The translations under genes were made by a program, and so were the position numbers. The notes under the pieces were generated by a model. It saw only the letters and a program-made list of their open reading frames with translations, was not told the origin of the DNA and did no database searches. DNA of 64,000 nt from a virus, in IMG/VR virus record IMGVR_UViG_3300007538_000022, positions 26,275-90,274 of that record; one strand, given 5' to 3'. Below are positions 1,642 through 58,705 of the stretch, one piece after another; positions within the stretch are counted from its first letter, which is position 1; each line of letters begins with the position of its first letter.

Positions 1642-4600
1642 TTATACATTAACTTGATAATTCGCAAACAAAATAAATTGTTCACTTGAATTATCTTTTG
1701 TTCGTTTTATTATATATCTATCAATATCATAATTAATAGTTTGTGGATTATAATCGCTGTTTTTTATGTTTCTTAATATGTTTTCACTTGTGCCAGGTTT
1801 ACAATAACATATAGGAATAGCCATTTGATAATCCAGTTCTTGAAATTCTAATTGTGGGCTTCTCATCCATAATGGTAAAAACTCTCTTTCAGTTTTTCCA
1901 ATAGCTTTTATATTATCTCGCATATTAGCAATACTTGAAATAAATCGAATTTGATCTTTACTATTACTTACTTTAATTGATGTTGTATCTGCTTTAAAAG
2001 TATTTGCATATTTAGGTCTACGTCGCATTGGTTCACTATCACCGAGTTCTAAAACTACAGTTGCAGTAGACGAATCTCTTATGATAACTTCAAAATCATT
2101 CATATCAGTGTTTACTACTACATCAGTGTTACGAGTTTCTATAATTAGTTGATCGTTAGATACAATTAAAAATTTTGTAAGATTTCTTCCGTACACTGGT
2201 AACAGTTCGGTTCCTAAATTATATCCAGTAACGTCATCTTTTGCAGCATATTGCAAACTATCTACTGTAATATTATTAGCAGTATTTATAGTGAAGTGTT
2301 TTTTAGTTTTTCCAATTTTAGGTACCGCAGGATCAATAACATCAATATAAATTACTTCATATACAACATCACGAGTTCCAGGTAATATCGCAACTGCATT
2401 TTTAAACTCTCCCAATATATATTGTTTTCGTTTATGATTAGTTGCTGCCGCTGCTACAAATTTGTCTATCTCTTTAACTTCTATGCCGCTATAAACTAGC
2501 ATGTCTAGATTAAGTTGTAATCCAAAATTTTTATCTTGAGGTCTATAAATGCTTTCTGGTGTAAATATGCTTGAGTTACTAATAAATTCTCTATACGATA
2601 ATCTTGTAGATTCTGCTAACATTGGTCGCATATAGATGTCTGTATATAAGGTATTATCAAAGTCGTTTACAGATAACTTAAATTCACGTTCAACTGCTGA
2701 GTAATTAAATCTATCTCTAGCTTCGACTACAAAATGAAATTCTCTATCAAATGACGTATCACTTGATATGCCTCCATCAAACGTAGTAGATCTACTATCA
2801 AATATTGTTAACCCAGGTTGTTCGGGTGAGCTAGTTTGATTGGCAATTCCTATAATTTCCCCACTATACGACATATACATTCCGTATGGGAGTCTACCTG
2901 ATTTAAATGTATACACTATGCTACTATCTGGAACTGTAGTTTCTGCTTTAACAAATAATGTGCTTACATAATCTGAATTTATTGTACCTAAGTCAGAAGG
3001 AGTAATCCAATTAATATTCGAATCAATTTCTCCAATTACTGTAAGTTCAAATGTCTTAACTGAACTTGGCATAACAACATCATCCTGACTTGCTACTACA
3101 AAATCTTTAGTAAAATAGTCGTCTTTAAGTAACGCTAATCCAATATTTCTGTATATTAGTAATTGCTGTCCAATATTAGTATTAAGTTGTACTTTATCTT
3201 CGTTCTCACGAAGAACTTGTATTGTTGTAAGATCTCCAAAAATATCTTTTATATTTGTTAAATTAGTAGTATGTGCTGTTTGTGGGAGCATTACTGTCCA
3301 ATTTTTACTTGTTACTGCATTAATATAAGCATCATAATTAAATTCATGTTTTAACATTAATAAAGTTGCAGATACTATCTGGGATATTGATAGTTGATTA
3401 ATAGTTTCGGCGATTTCATCCCAATTTGATAATTCAAATGTAGAATAAGTATGATCCACTTTACATTTGTATATTTTACCATTTTCTCCTGTAACAATAT
3501 CTCCTATGAAATAGTTTGTTCCAATAACCAAATCATACGGCACATTTATTGGATATATATCGTTTTCACTAGTTATGCTATACTCAATATATGGTGAAAC
3601 AGAATTAATAGTATATGATACATACTCACTAAACTTAATAACTCTTTCTTTCACTTGTTCTCGTTGTGCATTTGTAATTCGATTAATAAAAAAGTAATCT
3701 TGTCCGGCTGCTGCTGTTCTACTTAATTTAAAGTCAATTTGTGCAATTAACGGTTGAGTTAATGTAATTGTGTCATAATCACTATTTGAATCATCTACAC
3801 TTAATACTGTATACTGATGAACTCCTAATAAGATTTTTTGATTTACTAAATTTTTTAAATCTTGAAAGTTATCATCGCTTGTTAAATCTAATTTGTATAT
3901 TTTAAATTTGGTATTTCCAGCAATTACATCTTCGTAAAAGTTTGCATAAACAGTTATATGTTCGTCGTCTTGCGTCATTCTAGTTGCACGAATTGTAAAC
4001 TTATAGTTTTCTGTAACTGCTGGCTGATATGGCAATATTCCTGCAATTTCTCCAGATAATGCATCTAATGACAAGCCTGGTGGTAGTTCACTAATTGATC
4101 CATCGTCATTAAGATCCTCAAGGGTATACACAGGTAATCCATCTAATGTTTCATTATGAATAATATCTAAAACTAATATAGTGTAATTATCGGCTCGTTT
4201 AAATCCTAGATTACGAGGAGTAATCCATACTGGAGTACGTACATTAGTATTATCTGCAGTGAAAATTCCTGTAGCTGCATGCGTAATAGTATTGTCTGCG
4301 GTTAAGAAATCATCACCAACAACATATATTGTAAAGTCACGCCTTACATACCAATCACCATCTGTTACTGTTACAGTGAATGGATAGTATCTATTTAATT
4401 TTATAGGCTGTCTTTCAGTTTCGCTAAAATCATATGGAACACTATCAAAATAATAGCTTGCAAATCCATTTGAACTTGGAACATAAAAATCTAACGGGTA
4501 TTTGGAATACGGAGCCGTATCGTACCCTCCTCCTTGATATATTTTTTCTAGACTTAATAAAGGTTCAACAATGCCTTGTATTCTACCATCTTTAGATAGT

Positions 4601-25834: not shown

Positions 25835-27166
25835 TTAAATAGTAATGTTAAGTGCGTCTTTAAGTAAAATTTCTTCAAAAGTAAATGTTCCATATTCTAT
25901 AATTTTAGAGTGCAAATCTGCAGATTTAGCATTCAACTTAGCAATTTCTTCCTCAGTTAACGACTTCATTGGGAGAGATAAGAATTTTTGAATATACGGT
26001 GTTAACAGTTGATTATATTTTTCTGCTTGTAAAATAACATCTTGCTCTTTTTTATTGCGTAGCTCAATTTTACCATTAACTACTCCTGATATAAAAATAG
26101 ACTTTGCTGTAATATAATCTAAATCAACTTGCATTTGTTGTAGTACATGTTGCTTTCTTAAATTATTAAATTCAATCCGTTTTTCATACCATGCATTTAA
26201 TAACTCATCAATTGAATTAAATATAATTATTTTATTATCTTCATCTATACAAGTAAAGTTTTCTGTTATTTTTTTTACTAATTTAAGTTTATTAAGAATC
26301 CACTCATCGTCTCGTTCGCTAAACTGTCTATCTACTAGAATTTCAAATAAAAATTCGTCGTTATCTGACAAGTCGTCGTAATCTTTAATGTCTTTATCAT
26401 CAACTAATTTATCCAAAACTGCTTGATATTGTTTTAATGTATATCCAATTGGAAGGGCATCAATTACTAATCTGTGTTTTAACTTTCGATAAAAATTTCC
26501 TTTAATAATCCATTGTGTATCTAACTCTCCTGATTCAACAGTACACTTCATTCCATTCCAATGTGGTGTTAAATTAACTTTAGGTTTTCTAATTTTTGTT
26601 CGTTGCTTAACCCACTTTAAGATTTGTTTTGGATCTCTTGGCAGAATTTTCTGTGCAAATCCAATTGACACACCTTCCGATCCATTAATTGCAATTAATG
26701 GTAATACAGGAACGTAGAATCTAGGTTCAATAGATTCATTTTCAAATAATTGATGATTTAATATTTCATAATCGTCTTTAATAAATATTGATTTAAGAAT
26801 GGGATTCATTCTTGCAAAAATGTAACGTGTAGCTGAAGCATCTGGAATAAACGTACTACCAAAATTACCATCGCCTTCTAATAAAGGTAAATTATTACCC
26901 GAACCTACGTAATCCGCAGTCATATTTACAATAGTACTTTCCAGAGAACCATGCAAGTATTGTGCATAGTCTTGAACTTTAGGACCTAAATTTGATACTT
27001 TTACAAATTTATCAATATTTTGTCTAATAACAGTGTGAAGTATTTTACGAGAAGCATTTTTTTGCCCATCAATATAACTTCCTAATTTACGAACATTATC
27101 ATAAACTGAAAATGAAATATATTCATCTTTGAAAAAGTCTTCCAATGGTAATGTATGTGTATTCAT
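25835..27166 (-). CDS. Type IIA DNA topoisomerase, GyrA/ParC-like subunit (T4 gp52-like)
   Basis: IDGQKNASRKIL, YLHG, GNFGS, ASATRYIF (catalytic Tyr), EPRFYVPVLP. Confidence 0.92.
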   Translation of the reverse strand: MNTHTLPLEDFFKDEYISFSVYDNVRKLGSYIDGQKNASRKILHTVIRQNIDKFVKVSNLGPKVQDYAQYLHGSLESTIVNMTADYVGSGNNLPLLEGDGNFGSTFIPDASATRYIFARMNPILKSIFIKDDYEILNHQLFENESIEPRFYVPVLPLIAINGSEGVSIGFAQKILPRDPKQILKWVKQRTKIRKPKVNLTPHWNGMKCTVESGELDTQWIIKGNFYRKLKHRLVIDALPIGYTLKQYQAVLDKLVDDKDIKDYDDLSDNDEFLFEILVDRQFSERDDEWILNKLKLVKKITENFTCIDEDNKIIIFNSIDELLNAWYEKRIEFNNLRKQHVLQQMQVDLDYITAKSIFISGVVNGKIELRNKKEQDVILQAEKYNQLLTPYIQKFLSLPMKSLTEEEIAKLNAKSADLHSKIIEYGTFTFEEILLKDALNITI

Positions 27167-51252: not shown

Positions 51253-52881
51253 TTAATTACCCTCAGTCGGTGGTATGAAATTTAAATCTTCGTATGTAAA
51301 TTCTTTTACGACATTTACTAAATAGTCGATAGTTTTTGCATTTTTTGGAGTAGAGCTATGATTTTCTTCAAACACTGATAACCTACCATCTAAGATTGTA
51401 GGAAATAATAATGCACGAACTTCATCTATTTTTTCTTCAATATCAAATGCGTTGCTGTCTAACATTAGAACTTTAGACCCATCTCGAATCTCATAAACAG
51501 CTTCTAATCTTAATCTCATAGGTACTATACTAAACGGTTCTAAAACACCTTCATTAGGTTGTCCGTTTGCACTTTCAAAAACGTATTCTACACCTGGTAC
51601 AATTCTTGGATTTTTAGGATTATTACGATAGTACGGACTGGTTTCTATTTCATAAAACAACACTTTATCTAAAAATTGATAGCCTAGTGAATACGGTCGC
51701 ATAGTTTCACCTTTGCCAAATGGGTCATCAGTTTCTGCAAGTTTTTGAATTGTATCTTCGCTACATTCGTCAAATTCATCAATAAAAACCCCACCTGCAG
51801 GATTTTGACCGTATAGTTTTTCTCTAACTAGAAAATCAGGATCGCTGAACACATTATTTTGTCCTATAAATTCTGTAGGATATTGATTCACACACGGGTC
51901 CGTATCAAGAACACACAGCAAATACTGATCAGCTAATTGATTTTTAATATAAACTTCGTTGTAGTAAGGCATAGAGCTTCGAACTTCATCCTCTCCAATA
52001 GGTTCTATGCATGGGCTTGATACTTTTAAATATAACCAATTCTTTGTTAAAACATCATCTAAATTGCTATAGTCGTATTTTAGTGATCGTAACTGGTTTA
52101 AATGAAATATTAAATTAGTAAGTAACCCAATATCATAATGTGATGGAGAATACTTAGTTGTGTAGTATACATCGATTATTTCACCATCGATTTCAACTTG
52201 TTCATATAAATCTGTACTTATGTCAAATTTTTCATATTCAGGCATGTACCCAGCAAATTCACCCGCTTCACCTATTTTAAAGTATTCATAAAGTCCAGCT
52301 TCGATAAAAGTGTAACTGTAATCTTTTACATATACCCAAGATTCACCATTGAGCGATACTGTTTCTTCTTCTAGTCGACTTGCTGGATTTACTGTAATTG
52401 TATGTTTCTCTGATTGATTAAAACCTTGCCATTCGTATGTAAACACAGACAGTAATCTTAAATTATCAAAAAAGTCGTGACTAGATGGTAAAGTTTCAAC
52501 ATGATACCAATTGTATTGAAAATACCAGCGTTGTAATTCATGTGTAAGAATTGCAACATTATTGTTAATATAATTATTTAATGCTAAATTCCACAAAGAT
52601 TCTGGTAATTTTTTATTATTCCAACTTAATACATTGTCTAATAGATGAGTTCTAAATCGCTCCAATCTAAGCCACGGTATCGAACCCCCATATTCAGATT
52701 CGTAGTCGCCTCGAATAATGCTACGATATGGAAATTCTCTAACATTTGTACCACTATGTAATAATTTATCACCGTTTGTGTACTCTTGAATTACATCAGC
52801 AGATTCATTAATTTCCAAGAAATATTCTTCTCGCATAGTTCGATCTGCATTAGGCGATGCATGGATGTTAGTATCGACCAT
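51253..52881 (-). CDS. Large acidic hypothetical protein downstream of PAAR
   Basis: 542-aa ORF rich in E/D/Y. Confidence 0.7.
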   Translation of the reverse strand: MVDTNIHASPNADRTMREEYFLEINESADVIQEYTNGDKLLHSGTNVREFPYRSIIRGDYESEYGGSIPWLRLERFRTHLLDNVLSWNNKKLPESLWNLALNNYINNNVAILTHELQRWYFQYNWYHVETLPSSHDFFDNLRLLSVFTYEWQGFNQSEKHTITVNPASRLEEETVSLNGESWVYVKDYSYTFIEAGLYEYFKIGEAGEFAGYMPEYEKFDISTDLYEQVEIDGEIIDVYYTTKYSPSHYDIGLLTNLIFHLNQLRSLKYDYSNLDDVLTKNWLYLKVSSPCIEPIGEDEVRSSMPYYNEVYIKNQLADQYLLCVLDTDPCVNQYPTEFIGQNNVFSDPDFLVREKLYGQNPAGGVFIDEFDECSEDTIQKLAETDDPFGKGETMRPYSLGYQFLDKVLFYEIETSPYYRNNPKNPRIVPGVEYVFESANGQPNEGVLEPFSIVPMRLRLEAVYEIRDGSKVLMLDSNAFDIEEKIDEVRALLFPTILDGRLSVFEENHSSTPKNAKTIDYLVNVVKEFTYEDLNFIPPTEGN

Positions 52882-52883
52882 TT

Positions 52884-53174
52884 TTAATCTCCTGCAAATA
52901 CATCTGGACTATGCTCGTTGCATCGACTACCGCATGAGATAGGATCGCTTTGACGAGCATATTCTAAGTTATTTGCAAATACAGTTTCACTGCCATCTGC
53001 AACTACTCCAGAATGACACCCATTACCGCAACAATGAACAACATAAGAATCTGTTAATCTAATTTGATTTAAATTGTTTGCAAACACATCTGGACTCCAT
53101 GACGAAGGAGGTCTAGGAGGCCAGCATCCGTGTCCTGTACAATTATCTGTTCTTCTATGTACCGGTAATGTCAT
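52884..53174 (-). CDS. PAAR-domain spike tip protein (T4 gp5.4-like)
   Basis: PVHR.TD.CTGHGCWPP...SPDVFAN...H.C...H...GSETVFAN...ARQSDPISCGS. Confidence 0.92.
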   Translation of the reverse strand: MTLPVHRRTDNCTGHGCWPPRPPSSWSPDVFANNLNQIRLTDSYVVHCCGNGCHSGVVADGSETVFANNLEYARQSDPISCGSRCNEHSPDVFAGD

Positions 53175-53177
53175 AAT

Positions 53178-53465
53178 TTATAATGTAAGTCCTGAAGTTT
53201 GTTGCATATATGCTGATGCAATTTCTTTTGTTGTTTTGACAATTGAAATAATATGCGATGTGTTAATTTTAAAAGAATTGTCTAAATCAACTGAAAACAT
53301 ATAGGGAGTTAATCCTACGCCTTGTTGATTAATAGAAAGAGACATTGCTTTTGCTACTACAACAGCAGTAGAACTTTCATTCTCAAATCTTCCAATAACT
53401 TCTTCACCGGAAGTTAATTTTAATGAAATGATATCGTTTTGTTTATATGGTACATCTAACAGCAT
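53178..53465 (-). CDS. Conserved phage Sm-like/SH3-fold protein
   Basis: ISLKLTSGEEVIG...Y.QQTSGL. Confidence 0.6.
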   Translation of the reverse strand: MLLDVPYKQNDIISLKLTSGEEVIGRFENESSTAVVVAKAMSLSINQQGVGLTPYMFSVDLDNSFKINTSHIISIVKTTKEIASAYMQQTSGLTL

Positions 53466-53727: not shown

Positions 53728-54831
53728 TTATAGTTTGTAATTTGAAAAATTATTTATATTTAAGTCATGTTTAATACCGCCTACTATATAACTTTCAATT
53801 TCTGTCTCTTGAGGAGCATTTTGTAAAGTTGAACTAGACAACCAGTGTGTAGTCCACGGTAACGGGTTGTTATTAATCGGTGCATCAAACATTGGATTAT
53901 ATCCAATAGATTTAAGTCTTCGATTTGCAATATATTTACTGTACTGGTGTAACAATGTGCTGTTTAGACCTATAATCGAACCATCTTTAAATAAGTAATC
54001 AGCCCATGCCATTTCTTCAGCAATACAAGTTTCCCACATTTGATAAACTTCATCTTCGCACTCTTTAATAATGCTAACCATTTCAGGATCGTCTTTTCCC
54101 TGAGCCCATAATTTAATTATATGTGTAGAAATAGCTAAATGTTGTGCTTCATCTCTTGCAATTAAACTAATAATTTTAGCCGAACCTTCGACTAGTTTTA
54201 ATTCACCAAATGCAAATGAACACGCAAATGATACATAAAATCTTAATCCTTCTAAGATATTAACATTCATCATTGCAAGAAATAGTTTTTTCTTAACTTC
54301 CCGTAATGTTCCAGATTTGTTATAGATAAAATTATTAGCAGCATCTATGAATGAATCGTAATTCTTAGTTACACTTGATGCACGTTTAATAATCTCTTCG
54401 TCATTTAAAATAGTATCAAAAATTTCACTAGGATCAGGGTAAATATTTTTTATAATATGAGTGTATGATCTAGAATGAATTGTTTCAAAAAAGTCCCAAG
54501 TAACAACAGCACCTTCTAATTCAGGTAAACTGATAAATGGTAAAAATGCAGTACATGGACCTCTACCTTGTACAGAATCTAATAAGATTTGATACTTCAA
54601 GTTACTAGTGAAAATATGCTTTTGTTCAGGTCTAAATTCAGCATAATCTGCTCGATCTTTTTGGAGACTAACTTCCTCAGGCCTCCAAAAGTATCCTAAC
54701 ATTGTTTGATTTAATTTGTCAAATACGGGAAATCTAAAAACATCATATCTTTGTGTATTTTGATCCTCACCAAAAAACATATATTCTTTAGTAAAATCTA
54801 TGTTTTTATTATTGAAAATAGTTTTAGCCAT
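53728..54831 (-). CDS. nrdB: Class Ia ribonucleotide reductase beta subunit
   Basis: FWRPEEV, LLDSVQGR, ETIHSRSY, LEGLRFYVSF, RDEAQH, APQETEIESY. Confidence 0.97.
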   Translation of the reverse strand: MAKTIFNNKNIDFTKEYMFFGEDQNTQRYDVFRFPVFDKLNQTMLGYFWRPEEVSLQKDRADYAEFRPEQKHIFTSNLKYQILLDSVQGRGPCTAFLPFISLPELEGAVVTWDFFETIHSRSYTHIIKNIYPDPSEIFDTILNDEEIIKRASSVTKNYDSFIDAANNFIYNKSGTLREVKKKLFLAMMNVNILEGLRFYVSFACSFAFGELKLVEGSAKIISLIARDEAQHLAISTHIIKLWAQGKDDPEMVSIIKECEDEVYQMWETCIAEEMAWADYLFKDGSIIGLNSTLLHQYSKYIANRRLKSIGYNPMFDAPINNNPLPWTTHWLSSSTLQNAPQETEIESYIVGGIKHDLNINNFSNYKL

Positions 54832-54841
54832 TTATAATTCC

Positions 54842-55357
54842 TTACAGTTTACATGCGCTACATTCTTCATCTGAATCAGTAGCAGAATCGTCAATTTCAC
54901 TTGGGTCAGTTTTATAATCGTATGTATTTGAATAATAAACTGTTTTTAATCCATACTTATATGATTGTAGTAAATCTTCAGTTAACACGCTCATTGGAAT
55001 TTCATTGTTAGAATACTGAGTTGGATTATAACTCCAGTTAGTTGAAATAGATTGATCAAAAAACTTTTGCATAACTGCCATTATATTTAAATATCCTTTA
55101 TTTGAAGGCATATCCCACAGTAAAGTATAATGGTTTTTAAGTGTTTGATATTGAGGTACAATTTGCTTTAGTGGTCCTTTTTTTGATTTTTTAACAGATA
55201 AAAACCCTCTAGGAGGTTCTACACCGTTAGTTGCATTAGACACAACTGAGCTGTTATGCGAGATTAAATTCTCAACAACGTAATGATGAACATCAGGAAC
55301 TTCGATGTCATACGTTGGTAACACTTCATTTAAAAACTCTACTTTTTTAACTTTCAT
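54842..55357 (-). CDS. nrdA: NrdA fragment 4: split-intein-2 IntC (35 aa) plus C-terminal extein
   Basis: ...TYDIEVPDVHHYVVENLISHN|SSVVSNATNGVEPPRG; DQSISTN; KTVYY; C-terminal CSAC. Confidence 0.95.
   Translation of the reverse strand: MKVKKVEFLNEVLPTYDIEVPDVHHYVVENLISHNSSVVSNATNGVEPPRGFLSVKKSKKGPLKQIVPQYQTLKNHYTLLWDMPSNKGYLNIMAVMQKFFDQSISTNWSYNPTQYSNNEIPMSVLTEDLLQSYKYGLKTVYYSNTYDYKTDPSEIDDSATDSDEECSACKL
55253..55357 (-). mobile_element. Split intein 2, C-fragment (Ser+1)
   Basis: Blocks F/G: YDIEV..H.Y...SHN/S. Confidence 0.92.
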
Positions 55358-55359
55358 TA

Positions 55360-56307
55360 CTAATCCTTTAAGTTTAATTCAATAATATCATCATTTTCAT
55401 TTAATTCACTTGCATGCTTCCATAATGTTTGGTTATTTTCTGTTCGAACTAAGAATTTATGAGTCGGTGTACATTTAATTACTTTCCCATTATCTAAAGT
55501 AATCGATACAACTTCTTTATGACCGTTGAAATAAATTTTAGTTACTTCTTTATTCCCTTCAAGAGTTGGAACTATTAACGGTTCTTCTAACGTAAACCAT
55601 CCTATAGCATTATTTAATTCAATTCGATACCAACTAATATGATTCATTTCACAAATTTCGTGAAAGTTTAAATACCCTTTATTTGTTAAAATTTTATGTT
55701 CCCAGTTTAAGCACGATTCACTAGGCATTTGTGCAGATAATGTTGAATGACGTAAGCCATGTGTAACGATATCAGCTCTTAAACTTTCCCAATCGTAAGC
55801 AAGAGAATGTGGAACAATTAAGTCAACATCTTTTTTGTAAGTGTCAATTGGTAAGATTCCTTTTGAATATTTTGTACGGTTAAAATACAAACAAGGGCCT
55901 TTTTCTTTAGCTAAGTTGTTACTTGCTTTTAATAAGTAATATTGAAATGCCTCAGATAAATCGTGTACTAATTTCCAAGCCTTTGGATCATCATATTTCA
56001 CATGATGTTTAGCTAAGTAATGTGCTAACCCTACGTATCCGATTCCTAGAGATCTTCGAGCTTTAGTTTCAATTTCAGCCGCTTTAACAGGATATTCCTG
56101 ATAATCTATCAATTCATCTAAAGACCGTACAGTTAACTCGCACAGTTCTTCTAATTGATCTAAATGTTTAATAGATCCTAAATTAATAGCAGATAAAATG
56201 CAAAGAGCAATTGCAGGAGAATCTTTACTTACAATAACGTCTTCTTCAAAATACACATACTCATCGTCGTTATCGCACTCTGTTACAAAACTGTATAATT
56301 CATTCAT
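55360..56307 (-). CDS. nrdA: NrdA fragment 3: acidic head, central extein and split-intein-2 IntN (117 aa)
   Basis: AIALCILSAINLG, RRSLGIG..GLA, GLRHSTLSAQMPSES|CLNWEH...CTPTHKF. Confidence 0.95.
   Translation of the reverse strand: MNELYSFVTECDNDDEYVYFEEDVIVSKDSPAIALCILSAINLGSIKHLDQLEELCELTVRSLDELIDYQEYPVKAAEIETKARRSLGIGYVGLAHYLAKHHVKYDDPKAWKLVHDLSEAFQYYLLKASNNLAKEKGPCLYFNRTKYSKGILPIDTYKKDVDLIVPHSLAYDWESLRADIVTHGLRHSTLSAQMPSESCLNWEHKILTNKGYLNFHEICEMNHISWYRIELNNAIGWFTLEEPLIVPTLEGNKEVTKIYFNGHKEVVSITLDNGKVIKCTPTHKFLVRTENNQTLWKHASELNENDDIIELNLKD
55363..55713 (-). mobile_element. Split intein 2, N-fragment
   Basis: Block A CLNWEHKILT; block B IKCTPTHKFLV. Confidence 0.92.
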
Positions 56308-56318
56308 TATATTTCCTT

Positions 56319-56576
56319 TTAAATAGAACGATCTTGTAAATAATTACCAATCGATTTTTTGTACTCATTGTACTTATCCATATCTGATTTCTTAACTTTT
56401 ACTAATCGTTTTTCAGTAGTGCCGATGTCATCGATGTGTTGCAATGGAGTAGTAGGTAACGTAATTTCTTGGCAATTGTGTACAAGAATGTCATTTGCAT
56501 AAAAATTATGATTATCCTCGACGGTTATATCGTAAACTTCAATAGGGGCATCTAAATATTCTATAATTAAACTCAT
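56319..56576 (-). CDS. nrdA: NrdA fragment 2: split-intein-1 IntC (34 aa), 16-aa extein carrying the radical Cys, and basic tail
   Basis: VYDITVEDNHNFYANDILVHN|CQEITLPTTPLQHIDD followed by a 35-aa non-RNR tail. Confidence 0.95.
   Translation of the reverse strand: MSLIIEYLDAPIEVYDITVEDNHNFYANDILVHNCQEITLPTTPLQHIDDIGTTEKRLVKVKKSDMDKYNEYKKSIGNYLQDRSI
56475..56576 (-). mobile_element. Split intein 1, C-fragment (Cys+1)
   Basis: Blocks F/G: VYDITV..NHNFYAN..LVHN/C. Confidence 0.95.
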
Positions 56577-56587
56577 TGTGTATTTCC

Positions 56588-58228
56588 TTATTCTTGTGAA
56601 AAATTATTTATTATACGTAATTTGTCGGTTTCTGTCAAGTTTTTTGCTAACACATAACCTCTATTTTCAGTATAAACTTTATGCTCTGGTGTACATATAA
56701 TGGATTTACCGGACGTTGAGTCTGTAATTTTCATTACCTTAGCAGAAGTGTTAGTTAACGCACTGTTAGAAATCCGTTTGTATTCAGACTTTTGAGTGTA
56801 TTCGTTAAACGATAGTACATCAATAGTTTCGCCATTATGAAAATGTGTATTAGCTTGTTCTAATGTAATAGCTTGTTCGGTATTATTTACAATAGCATGG
56901 ATAATAGTATCACCGGACAAACACAAGTTACTCATATAAACAGTATCTAAAAATGAACTATGATTATTACAATGATCGGTAAACATTATATACAATCTGC
57001 CAGTTTCAGTTTTTTCTTTAATTAAAGTAGAAAACAGTTCAACAGCAGGAACTACTGATTGTTTAATATTTGAATTTTTTTCATATGCAGAATATAATTT
57101 AGAAAATACATCAGGGTCTCCAAAATACGCTTCGTATAAATCTGGAACGTCATGAGGGGAAAATAAAGTAATATTTCCATTACTGAGAAATCTCTCAATC
57201 ATAGTTTTATTAATTTGAATAGAATAATCTAATTTTCTAACTCGATTATCTTCAGTACCTTTGTTGTTTTTCAAAACTAATATATCTTTAATTTCTTGAT
57301 GCCAAATTGGAAAATGAACAGTTGCACTTCCACCTCTAACACCGTTTTGTGTACAGCATTTAACAGTAGATTCAAATTTCTTTAAAAATGGAATAACGCC
57401 AGTATGTGCAACTTCTCCTCCTCTAACTTTAGAGTTTACTCCTCTAATTCTTCCAGAATTAATACCTATACCTGCACGTAAAGCAGTATACCGACCAATA
57501 GCCATATCACTTGAAAAAATGCTGTTTAACGTATCGTCGCTATCAACTAGCACACAACTAGCATACTGCCGTACAGGAGTCCTAACGCCTGCATTTACAG
57601 GGGTTGGAATATTAATATGAAATAATGATAGTCCGTCGTAATATTTTTTAATATAATGCATACGAGATGCTTTATCGTATTGAGAAAACATAGTAGCAGC
57701 AATCATAATGTACATTATTTGAGGAGTCTCAAAAATTTGTCCAGTTGATCTGTCTTGAACTAAATATTTGTCAACAATTTGTCTTAACCCTGCATATGTA
57801 AAGTTTTCATCGCGATTATAATGGATCATTGATTCTAATTTTTCTATGTCTTCTTTAGAAAACATATCTAAAAATGATTTATCATACACTCCTCGATTAA
57901 CATTAGAAACAATAATATCATACAAAGGAACCGGTCGATATTGTCCGTACACCTGTTTGTTTAAATTATAACTCATTAAACGAGCAGCAGCATATTGATA
58001 ATTAGGAGATTCTAATGATATTAAATCACTAGCAGACCTAATAAGGATTTTTTGTATTTCATGGGTACTCATTTTGTTATAAAATTGTAAATTTGCATTC
58101 ATTTCAATTTGACTAGCACTTACTCCTGCAAGATTTGCACATGCCTCCTCTACTACAAAATGAATCTTTTCAATGTTTAATGGTTCTTCGACCCCATCGC
58201 GTTTAACGATCATAATCTGTTCTGACAT
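56588..58228 (-). CDS. nrdA: NrdA fragment 1: ATP cone, N-terminal extein (435 aa) and split-intein-1 IntN (111 aa)
   Basis: IVKRDG ATP cone, ETPQ, PTPV, ASCVL, QNGVRGG, SNL|CLSGDT...CTPEHK. Confidence 0.96.
   Translation of the reverse strand: MSEQIMIVKRDGVEEPLNIEKIHFVVEEACANLAGVSASQIEMNANLQFYNKMSTHEIQKILIRSASDLISLESPNYQYAAARLMSYNLNKQVYGQYRPVPLYDIIVSNVNRGVYDKSFLDMFSKEDIEKLESMIHYNRDENFTYAGLRQIVDKYLVQDRSTGQIFETPQIMYIMIAATMFSQYDKASRMHYIKKYYDGLSLFHINIPTPVNAGVRTPVRQYASCVLVDSDDTLNSIFSSDMAIGRYTALRAGIGINSGRIRGVNSKVRGGEVAHTGVIPFLKKFESTVKCCTQNGVRGGSATVHFPIWHQEIKDILVLKNNKGTEDNRVRKLDYSIQINKTMIERFLSNGNITLFSPHDVPDLYEAYFGDPDVFSKLYSAYEKNSNIKQSVVPAVELFSTLIKEKTETGRLYIMFTDHCNNHSSFLDTVYMSNLCLSGDTIIHAIVNNTEQAITLEQANTHFHNGETIDVLSFNEYTQKSEYKRISNSALTNTSAKVMKITDSTSGKSIICTPEHKVYTENRGYVLAKNLTETDKLRIINNFSQE
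56591..56923 (-). mobile_element. Split intein 1, N-fragment
   Basis: Block A CLSGDTII; block B IICTPEHKVYTENRGYV. Confidence 0.95.
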
Positions 58229-58273
58229 AATAATTCCTTGTTGAAAAATATTTTAAATATTTAGTGTTTAAAT

Positions 58274-58705
58274 TTAATGATTTATTTTAGTCGACAAGTT
58301 AAACGACTCAGAAACTGACAATGTATTTGGCAATTCTGATACATGTATTGCTTGGTCATTTTCGAACCCTACAACACAATCGTTTATAAAAAGCAAATAA
58401 AAATATTTTGAAGTTGAATGATCATTCATAAACTTTAATGAAAAGACACATTCTTTAAATCGATTAAGTAATGATAATGAGTAATAGATTGCTAATATTT
58501 TGGTAAATTCACAATATGAATTGTAATCTAATAGTTCCCACGCAGATGGCCATGACGATTGATCATATGGGTCAGTTTGCAGTTGACTAAGTGGCGCAGC
58601 ATTGTAAAAGTTAATTGCATCGCGTATTGGATCAGAAGATGTTTCTAATTCCAGTCTAAAATTTCTCCAAATTAATATTCGATCTTCATAAGTAGAATTG
58701 AACAT
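58274..58705 (-). CDS. Hypothetical protein
   Basis: W..FR...DPY..SWPSAWELL...YC. Confidence 0.7.
   Translation of the reverse strand: MFNSTYEDRILIWRNFRLELETSSDPIRDAINFYNAAPLSQLQTDPYDQSSWPSAWELLDYNSYCEFTKILAIYYSLSLLNRFKECVFSLKFMNDHSTSKYFYLLFINDCVVGFENDQAIHVSELPNTLSVSESFNLSTKINH

Follow-up and report, generated by a model that had tools for sequence, protein, structure and literature searches.

The ribonucleotide reductase (RNR) of Aeromonas phage Aeh1 is reportedly encoded as 'genes-in-pieces', NrdA-a / MobE / NrdA-b, an arrangement that Friedrich et al. are said to have described in 2007. The tails at the new ends of its two NrdA pieces sit on mature, separate chains, are not processed and cannot be removed without loss of activity (Crona et al. 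2010, PMC3045599). Their isoelectric points (pI) are 10.4 and 3.8; without them, neither the (aa/ab)2 complex nor tight NrdB binding is achieved, but the aa/ab heterodimer still forms (PMC3045599). Database searches with these tails matched nothing and their evolutionary origin was left open; Crona et al. noted their AT-richness relative to the surroundings and inferred foreign DNA acquired with mobE (PMC3045599). Here, we describe a related locus in the window, by which we mean the whole analyzed stretch of 64,000 nucleotides (positions 26,275 to 90,274 of IMG/VR virus record IMGVR_UViG_3300007538_000022). In it, one class Ia RNR large subunit (NrdA) is encoded by four tightly packed minus-strand open reading frames (ORFs), P1 to P4; P2 ends in a basic tail, P3 begins with an acidic head, and no endonuclease gene lies between them.

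We consider it probable that the window nrdA is an endonuclease-free descendant of an Aeh1-type 'genes-in-pieces' nrdA, an explanation that includes the origin of tail and head as one protein domain, the splitting of that domain by a homing endonuclease gene (HEG) and the reassembly of its halves. The record, a viral contig of 90 kb, derives from freshwater metagenomes; the phage is T4-like, and its NrdA is nearest to those of T4-like cyanophages, with 70-76% identity. The original prediction for this DNA, made from its letters alone, had described a basic tail facing an acidic head, and its counts are exact: the tail has 35 aa with 9 K/R and 5 D/E, and the head 31 aa with 10 D/E and 1 K. Both sit in the loop between the equivalents of E. 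coli C439 and C462, and in alignments to PDB structures the homologous insertion follows approximately residue 455 of the E. coli protein, between these two cysteines. The same loop in the NrdA of phage S-PM2 reads PLHQIDGNGEIALC, so that about 66 residues in the window replace about four. P2 and P3 lie in different reading frames, separated by TAA and 11 nt (AAGGAAATATA), the latter forming a Shine-Dalgarno site at the correct distance from the P3 ATG.

The earlier claim that Aeh1 NrdA is split in the same region was borne out, since the same loop is affected, and aligning the tails carries the likeness beyond analogy: the window tail is homologous to that of NrdA-a. Aeh1 NrdA-a ends ..PTVPMGKKEKMLFKVKKSEVDKF.. 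and NrdA-b begins MIEHERIYEVYEDEEY..; over EKRLVKVKKSDMDKY in the window tail, 10 of 15 residues are identical to EKMLFKVKKSEVDKF in Aeh1. The two tails reach a Smith-Waterman score of 57 (z 6.7, p <= 3e-4 in a composition-preserving shuffle test) and 51% BLASTP identity over 35 aa. In all members, Aeh1 included, the tails have a pI of 9.1-9.9 and the heads of about 4.05; for the pI and shuffle calculations, the window tail was cut as 41 aa, including LQHIDD. The heads of the window and Aeh1 correspond in position, length class, a pI of about 4 and a D/E-E-Y motif. The two systems are therefore alike in a split within the C439-C462 loop without intein or intron, a basic C-terminal tail, an acidic N-terminal head and a homologous tail. 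They differ in that Aeh1 has a HEG, the HNH enzyme MobE, whereas the window has none and keeps only a HEG 3' end as a ribosome-binding site; in that the window tail and head (35 and 31 aa) are longer than those of Aeh1; and in that the window nrdA, unlike Aeh1, is cut additionally by two split inteins, giving four ORFs.

Relatives were searched in IMG/VR and in JGI metagenome contigs, with P2 and a degenerate DNA pattern for the Y-E-Y-F-Y-E-D-V head motif as queries; a word-based protein search with the head region returned only the source protein itself. About 12 distinct environmental phage nrdA loci have a homologous tail and head, the window tail being homologous to the tails in 11 other environmental sequences (tail consensus HIDDIG.TEKRKVKVKK..V..YKKY.K..GG.LYDH; head consensus ..LYEFV....ED..NYEYFYEDV.VD..PPA). 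Most of these loci carry a GIY-YIG-like HEG in the gap. In L003, L004, L005, L085, L087, L098, L113 and L157, the gap measures 786-840 nt and holds one HEG ORF of 250-254 aa exactly between tail and head. This ORF starts with a GIY-YIG-like motif, scores 23.9 bits against SegE_GIY-YIG (just below the Pfam cut-off of 25) and matches phrog_314 'homing endonuclease' with an E-value of 3e-28. Its C-terminal 137 aa are 39% identical (E 2e-22) to the DNA-binding half of MobE (L003:3324-4076 versus 2783-3496 of Aeh1, L083), and the nuclease halves of the two are unrelated, which means that one targeting module bears two nuclease modules at the same nrdA site. Aeh1 and the window's relatives are thus alike in a HEG with a homologous DNA-binding domain, the final HEG codons (..GDFNV*) overlapping the head ATG as mobE overlaps nrdA-b, and differ in the nuclease half, which is GIY-YIG-like in the relatives and HNH in MobE. 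Upstream of the split, different loci have a split intein, a contiguous intein or none, so the split is independent of inteins. A T4-type late-promoter-like motif, ATAAATA / TATAAATA, lies in the 5' untranslated region of the HEG, just past the tail stop, and calls to mind the control by a late promoter and a hairpin that has been described for Aeh1 mobE and fractured genes in the Global Ocean Sampling (GOS) metagenomes.

The window itself contains no such gene between tail and head, as first noted from the letters; the spacer is 11 nt long and the 90-kb record has no homologue of the HEG. Other relatives retain the HEG in various stages of decay. Only its C-terminal 87 aa are left in L101 and L097, beside three unrelated ORFs. 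In L101 (reverse strand, with a gap of about 1.8 kb from tail stop to head ATG) and also in L097, these ORFs of 131, 226 and 157 aa replace the N-terminal part of the HEG, and those of L101 may represent a second element inserted into it. L099 keeps the last ~170 nt of the HEG, and L103 has the first 17 nt of the cassette joined to its final 130 nt. The tail ORF of L164 and L118 continues into ..KKQKGDFNV*, the last approximately nine HEG codons, and overlaps the head ORF. Compared with these two loci, L117 has A6 instead of A5 in the A-run before GGAGAC (reverse strand); with the extra A, the tail ends in ..KRRL* instead of ..KGDFNV* and overlaps the head ORF by 1 nt instead of 35 nt. As the tail end is altered by A-run length, the last tail residues appear unconstrained, and the extreme end is free to vary, reading RSI*, ..GDFNV* or ..KRRL*.

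The spacer of the window can be placed in this series. The homologous stretch reads TAA-AAGGAAATATA-ATG in the window versus AAA-GGAGACTTTA-ATG, and the distance from a conserved Asp codon to the head ATG is the same, at 26 nt in the window versus 25 and 26 nt in L164 and L117. The window spacer aligns with AAGGAGAT(T/C)TTA, which codes for the HEG C-terminus ..GDFNV in L005, L087 and L164. On this alignment, the 11-nt spacer is evidently the remnant of the 3' end of a deleted HEG, whose nucleotides would have been kept because they form the ribosome-binding site of P3. The suggestion of a mobile-element relic consequently stands for the gap, given the HEG at exactly this spot in relatives and its 3' nucleotides in the window; it does not stand for the tails, which appear to be halves of a pre-existing NrdA insertion domain, as discussed below.

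The tail/head junction is confirmed as real DNA. In run X5, which belongs to an independent study of 2023, one contig matches 56282-56564 with zero differences, although its 26 nt on the head side fall short of a bridging rule of 31 nt, and a second X5 contig (54800-56294) overlaps it. Run X2, possibly the source sample, yields a contig over 55825-58300, and the exact P3 protein is present in eight contigs. No insertion-bearing form of the junction was seen in four runs, and no near-identical DNA was found in isolated phages. The junction is more than a chance arrangement because tail and head are conserved in many relatives, with fewer nonsynonymous than synonymous differences per site (pN below pS).

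No splicing element is apparent at this junction. In agreement with the earlier remark that neither segment has intein motifs, the only Pfam intein signal lies at P2 residues 5-34 and P3 residues 252-309. Tail and head together do not resemble a split intein, having 66 aa in total (inteins have about 130 aa) and no Pfam intein match; the tail opens with IGTT after ..HIDD and the head closes with ..KDSP before AIALC, where a split intein would have an N-terminal Cys/Ser nucleophile and a C-terminal HN ahead of Cys/Ser/Thr. For a group I intron, there was no Intron_gpI match in an Rfam scan of 54500-58600 at E <= 10, which returned only noise, and the stretch is coding sequence on which purifying selection acts. 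With no intein between P2 and P3, there is no sign of protein splicing, and the halves are expected as separate chains. It is extremely improbable, in our judgment, that P2 and P3 are nevertheless joined covalently, whether through -1 frameshifting of the ribosome at ..ATT TAA A.. or through a splicing element hidden in the 212 nt of 56215-56426. The -1 frame is open from the last tail codons into the P3 ATG frame, and contiguous tail-linker-head proteins exist in other lineages; however, the zero frame lacks an X XXY YYZ slippery heptamer, and close relatives vary in overlap or frame (-35, -1, +11 nt) and in A-run length, leaving no conserved shift site. The Shine-Dalgarno and ATG of P3, the lack of an Rfam intron or intein blocks, and the Aeh1 tails, which remain unprocessed on separate chains (PMC3045599), also speak against a covalent join.

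The origin of tail and head is suggested by NrdAs in which both occur in one chain. A hidden Markov model (HMM) of 12 tails gave only 3 matches against 50%-identity representatives, among which tail-bearing proteins are mostly represented by ordinary NrdAs. One match, P0004, is a metagenomic NrdA fragment in which a 14-aa linker connects a tail-like with a head-like segment in one chain. L189/P0005 is a complete, intein-free NrdA of 846 aa that reads ..GKNVKRLIEVKTDKIEEYKEY.., linker, ..KYTYFEEDVEMVYGDKPAEIALC, and L063 is likewise a contiguous tail-linker-head NrdA. About 40 further contiguous sequences have 87-103 residues between NLC and C.LSAIN, versus 24-28 in the other NrdAs retrieved, and the homologous insertion at this loop comprises 65-80 aa. 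For 33 of 40 insertions, a match at p <= 0.01 links the window tail to the N-terminal half, and the window head matches the C-terminal half in four of the 40 (P0005, P0006, P0036, P0134; z up to 6.7), for example KYTYFEEDVEMV versus EYVYFEEDVIV. Between ..HIDD and ..PAEIALC, the insertions carry GK.VK..I.VK, a helix, LY, a linker and an acidic Y.FEE..E.V in that order; the window tail and then the head carry the same motifs in the same order, the difference being that the polypeptide is interrupted in the linker. On this evidence, tail and head are best described as two halves of a pre-existing NrdA loop-insertion domain and not as relics of a mobile element.

Structure prediction gives this domain a shape. 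Solved NrdA structures all align to P0005 in two blocks, 5-452 and 531-817, indicating an insertion without a solved counterpart. In the AlphaFold2 model of P0005 (133 homologues; predicted local distance difference test score, pLDDT, 87.4; predicted template modeling score, pTM, 0.90), residues 453-530 form a strand (455-463), a helix (464-476), a strand (479-482), two linker helices and two further strands (500-503 and 518-528). The pLDDT is about 90 in the tail-like part and the last strand, and 67-80 in the linker. The C-terminal fragment of L063, modeled from a shallow alignment, reached a pLDDT of 48.6, too low to be informative, and an ESM Atlas search with the insertion found no fold relative at TM >= 0.5. 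The insertion is thus modeled as a compact alpha/beta mini-domain in which the HEG site falls in the variable, lower-confidence linker, and the assignment of the tail to strand-helix-strand and of the head to the last two strands of one domain is supported indirectly. The original prediction of a small heterodimerisation domain is upheld in that, indirectly, the contiguous NrdAs and the AlphaFold2 model point to one domain; 'heterodimerisation' may overstate its role, as the Aeh1 heterodimer forms without tails (PMC3045599).

A tblastn search with the L063 insertion gave no match in isolated phages, and a scan of prokaryote genomes for such NrdAs gave only three matches in metagenome-assembled genomes, at 55% identity and all with a short loop. 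Several contiguous-insertion NrdAs lie on very long contigs (P0023, 723 kb; P0035/P0129, 229-365 kb; P0046, 182 kb); together with the lack of any in the prokaryote species representatives, this suggests that they may come from jumbo or huge phages. We found no description of this NrdA clade in the literature searched.

A maximum-likelihood tree of the extein C-terminal to the insertion (104 rows) bears on the direction of change. Of the contiguous-insertion NrdAs, 35 of 39 fall in one clade. All split forms belong to a T4-like/cyanophage clade with strong support (99*), the remaining members of which have a short loop, and starred branches require at least six separate places for the split forms there. 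Few stretches of the gene are as well conserved as the flanking sequences, NLC.EI..PT and EIALC.LSA.N. That the contiguous insertions are instead secondary, tail and head having arisen as foreign DNA at a HEG insertion, as proposed for Aeh1, and a later HEG deletion having fused them in frame into an apparent 'domain', strikes us as distinctly unlikely. It could draw on the AT-richness of the Aeh1 tails relative to their surroundings (PMC3045599), on the variable linker length and on the fact that one frameshift in an overlap like that of L118 could fuse the ORFs. Yet contiguous forms are far more numerous and diverse, form one deep clade (35/39) and have conserved linker motifs, whereas split forms are few, shallow and scattered within an insertion-less clade, so that a split followed by later fusion fits the tree poorly. 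The linkers also lack HEG-derived sequence in any frame (a search for HEG remnants gave only noise), although none would be expected under either direction.

Several observations weigh against the descent of the window locus proposed here. The similarity of the window head to the Aeh1 head falls below significance on its own (p 0.06), as does its similarity to most contiguous insertions, the head being acidic and of low complexity. In the tree, the window groups with the HEG-bearing L003 and with the HEG-less L164 and L117, and this nesting means that the HEG was lost more than once or re-invaded. Moreover, the direction from contiguous to split rests on clade size and diversity.

Selection on both segments can be read from their divergence. 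Values of pN are 0.12-0.41 against pS of 0.46-0.92, and the ratio of nonsynonymous to synonymous rates (dN/dS) is 0.10-0.34 where dS is unsaturated, window comparisons included; by these ratios, tail and head are under purifying selection. This bears on whether the tails are neutral leftovers, dispensable because the barrel halves would meet through the large native NrdA interface. The formation of the Aeh1 NrdA-a/NrdA-b heterodimer without tails (PMC3045599) and the varying C-terminal extreme of the tail (RSI*, ..GDFNV*, ..KRRL*) are compatible with such neutrality. We nevertheless think it unlikely, as the tail-less Aeh1 enzyme is inactive (PMC3045599), purifying selection acts on tail and head while synonymous sites are near saturation, and both have kept the motifs that characterize the conserved domain of about 40 contiguous NrdAs.

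The same ratios, well below 1, argue against decay of the window nrdA into a pseudogene after damage by mobile elements. A gene in four pieces from which all HEGs are gone might suggest such a fate, but we regard it as very improbable: none of the four ORFs is disrupted, and an AAGGA-type ribosome-binding site precedes each of them; no active-site or intein junction residue is missing; nrdB and the glutaredoxin-like gene are intact; and the arrangement recurs in diverged relatives (L118 and L164, 76% extein identity) and in samples from 2017 and 2023.

The proposed history of an endonuclease-free descendant can be outlined in steps. An alpha/beta insertion domain of 65-80 aa in the C439-C462 loop is contiguous in a large clade of environmental, apparently viral NrdAs. 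A free-standing HEG with a GIY-YIG-like nuclease half and a MobE-like DNA-binding half would then have settled in the variable linker of the domain, splitting the gene, and the unit of tail, HEG and head would have spread by homing with co-conversion into insertion-less T4-like phage nrdA. Later, the HEG was presumably deleted in the window lineage, its last nucleotides serving as the ribosome-binding site of P3. P2 and P3 would be translated separately, P1 and P2 as well as P3 and P4 being joined covalently by the two flanking split inteins; with two covalent joins and none at the tail/head junction, the mature large subunit would consist of two chains. These spliced chains are predicted to associate through the barrel interface, while a basic strand, a helix and a further, short strand from the tail would combine with two acidic strands from the head to rebuild the mini-domain by sheet completion and charge complementarity, a non-covalent reassembly that we infer by analogy with Aeh1. 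The rebuilt mini-domain would align the barrel halves and keep the C439 and C462 active-site residues in register and, as in Aeh1, probably restores the interface for the active dimer.

A more general proposal is that half-domain, HEG and half-domain together form a mobile cassette with its own antidote. The cassette would co-convert self-complementing halves into a naive nrdA and mend the fracture non-covalently, making it a functional analogue of a split intein without splicing; to us, the case for this idea is evenly balanced. Co-conversion of half-domains by a HEG would reconcile the inference of foreign DNA by Crona et al. with an origin of the tails in a host protein. If the proposal is correct, HEG loss leaves a permanently split but functional enzyme, as in the window, and similar reasoning may extend to further genes that HEGs have fractured and that have charged tails, T4 gp39/gp60 among them.

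Other known systems share parts of this arrangement. Fractured genes with split inteins and free-standing HEGs were reported from the GOS metagenomes (Dassa et al. 2009, PMC2677866). They resemble the present loci in a cyanophage-like NrdA with a split intein directly before the thiyl-radical Cys, in GIY-YIG HEGs between the halves, as in the window's relatives, and in HEG 3' ends that overlap the downstream ORF; gp41-7 is, like the window, a HEG-less fractured locus (PMC2677866). They differ in that the window halves have no intein at the P2/P3 junction. Intein-less fracture by a HEG was mentioned in that study only for Aeh1 nrdA, a gp43 polymerase and one other gene (PMC2677866). In T4, mobA separates the topoisomerase genes of gp39/gp60, whose tail-like extensions of opposite charge were pointed out by Crona et al. 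(PMC3045599); like the window nrdA, this topoisomerase, although an unrelated protein, is an essential enzyme split by a free-standing HEG with charged new termini. HEG-less mini-inteins and the homing cycle, with its invasion, degeneration and loss, offer another parallel, with intact, truncated and deleted HEG states at one site in a functional host gene. In their case, the self-splicing element remains, whereas the scar left in the window would be a host-protein domain whose two parts have no covalent link.

Aeh1 already represents this kind of system. Compared with the literature searched, the homologous tail family, the exchange of GIY-YIG and MobE nuclease modules, the HEG-free end state together with two HEG-free split inteins, and a contiguous NrdA insertion domain as the source of the tails are new. 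The question left by the Aeh1 tails would thus receive an answer, namely that they are halves of a pre-existing NrdA insertion domain. The tail family occurs in freshwater and marine T4-like phages, travels with HEGs that share a DNA-binding module while their nuclease modules differ, and persists after HEG loss. The window represents a natural 'HEG-deleted' state and suggests that such a split can become fixed. In its four-ORF RNR, two covalent joins made by trans-splicing and one non-covalent join would have to cooperate, and the tail/head pair (approximately 35 + 31 aa) may be a compact natural heterodimerising module and a candidate protein-assembly tag alongside split inteins.

Table 1. 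Coordinates of the features of the split nrdA locus in the window and, in the last row, of the motif found in its relatives.
Feature	Position	Strand	Description
P1, NrdA piece 1	56588..58228	-	ATP cone, all-alpha domain, first barrel half to ..SNL, then split-intein N half 1 (starts CLSGDT)
P2, NrdA piece 2	56319-56576	-	Split-intein C half (IntC), CQEITLPTTPLQHIDD, 35-aa tail, stop
Split-intein C half 1	56475..56576	-	34 aa, ends ..VHN; opens P2; Pfam Intein_splicing at P2 residues 5-34
Extein segment CQEITLPTTPLQHIDD	56427..56474	-	16 aa; carries the thiyl-radical Cys (E. coli C439 equivalent)
Basic tail	56322..56426	-	35 aa; apparent first strand, first helix and second strand of the NrdA loop-insertion domain
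Stop and 11-nt spacer AAGGAAATATA	56308..56321	-	Stop 56319-56321, spacer 56308-56318; P3 Shine-Dalgarno; apparent remnant of HEG 3' end
Acidic head	56215..56307	-	31 aa; apparent last two insertion-domain strands (LYxFV, Y.YFEEDV)
P3, NrdA piece 3	55360-56307	-	Acidic head, extein core ..AIALCILSAINLG.., split-intein N half 2
P3 extein core	55714..56214	-	..AIALC (C462 equivalent) to ..MPSES
Split-intein N half 2 and stop	55360..55713	-	Starts CLNWEH; Pfam intein signal at P3 residues 252-309
P4, NrdA piece 4	54842..55357	-	Split-intein C half 2 (ends ..SHN) and C-terminal extein, SSVVSN to the C-terminal Cys pair
ATAAATA / TATAAATA motif	L003 ~3290-3300; L087 ~1610-1620; L005 ~3280-3290; L004 ~3275		Late-promoter-like

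The two split inteins of the window have no endonuclease gene between their halves, the gaps being 11 nt (56577-56587) and 2 nt (55358-55359). With no HEG at the tail/head junction nor in either split intein, all three mobile-element sites of the window nrdA are HEG-free. The intein 1 site is also occupied in L003-L082 and in the Klebsiella jumbo phage KP13-7 (L001). Among these relatives, an HNH/NUMOD3 HEG lies between the intein halves in L003 (L003:2102-3010) and a GIY-YIG ORF in KP13-7 (L001, 3304-4017), and L004/L005 have a contiguous mini-intein at this site. The four nrdA ORFs are followed by nrdB and a glutaredoxin-like gene, both intact. Immediately past the downstream end of the nrd operon, and on its strand, the ORF list places a PAAR-like ORF, a small ORF and an acidic ORF of 542 aa (52884-53465, 51253-52881; ORF list only).

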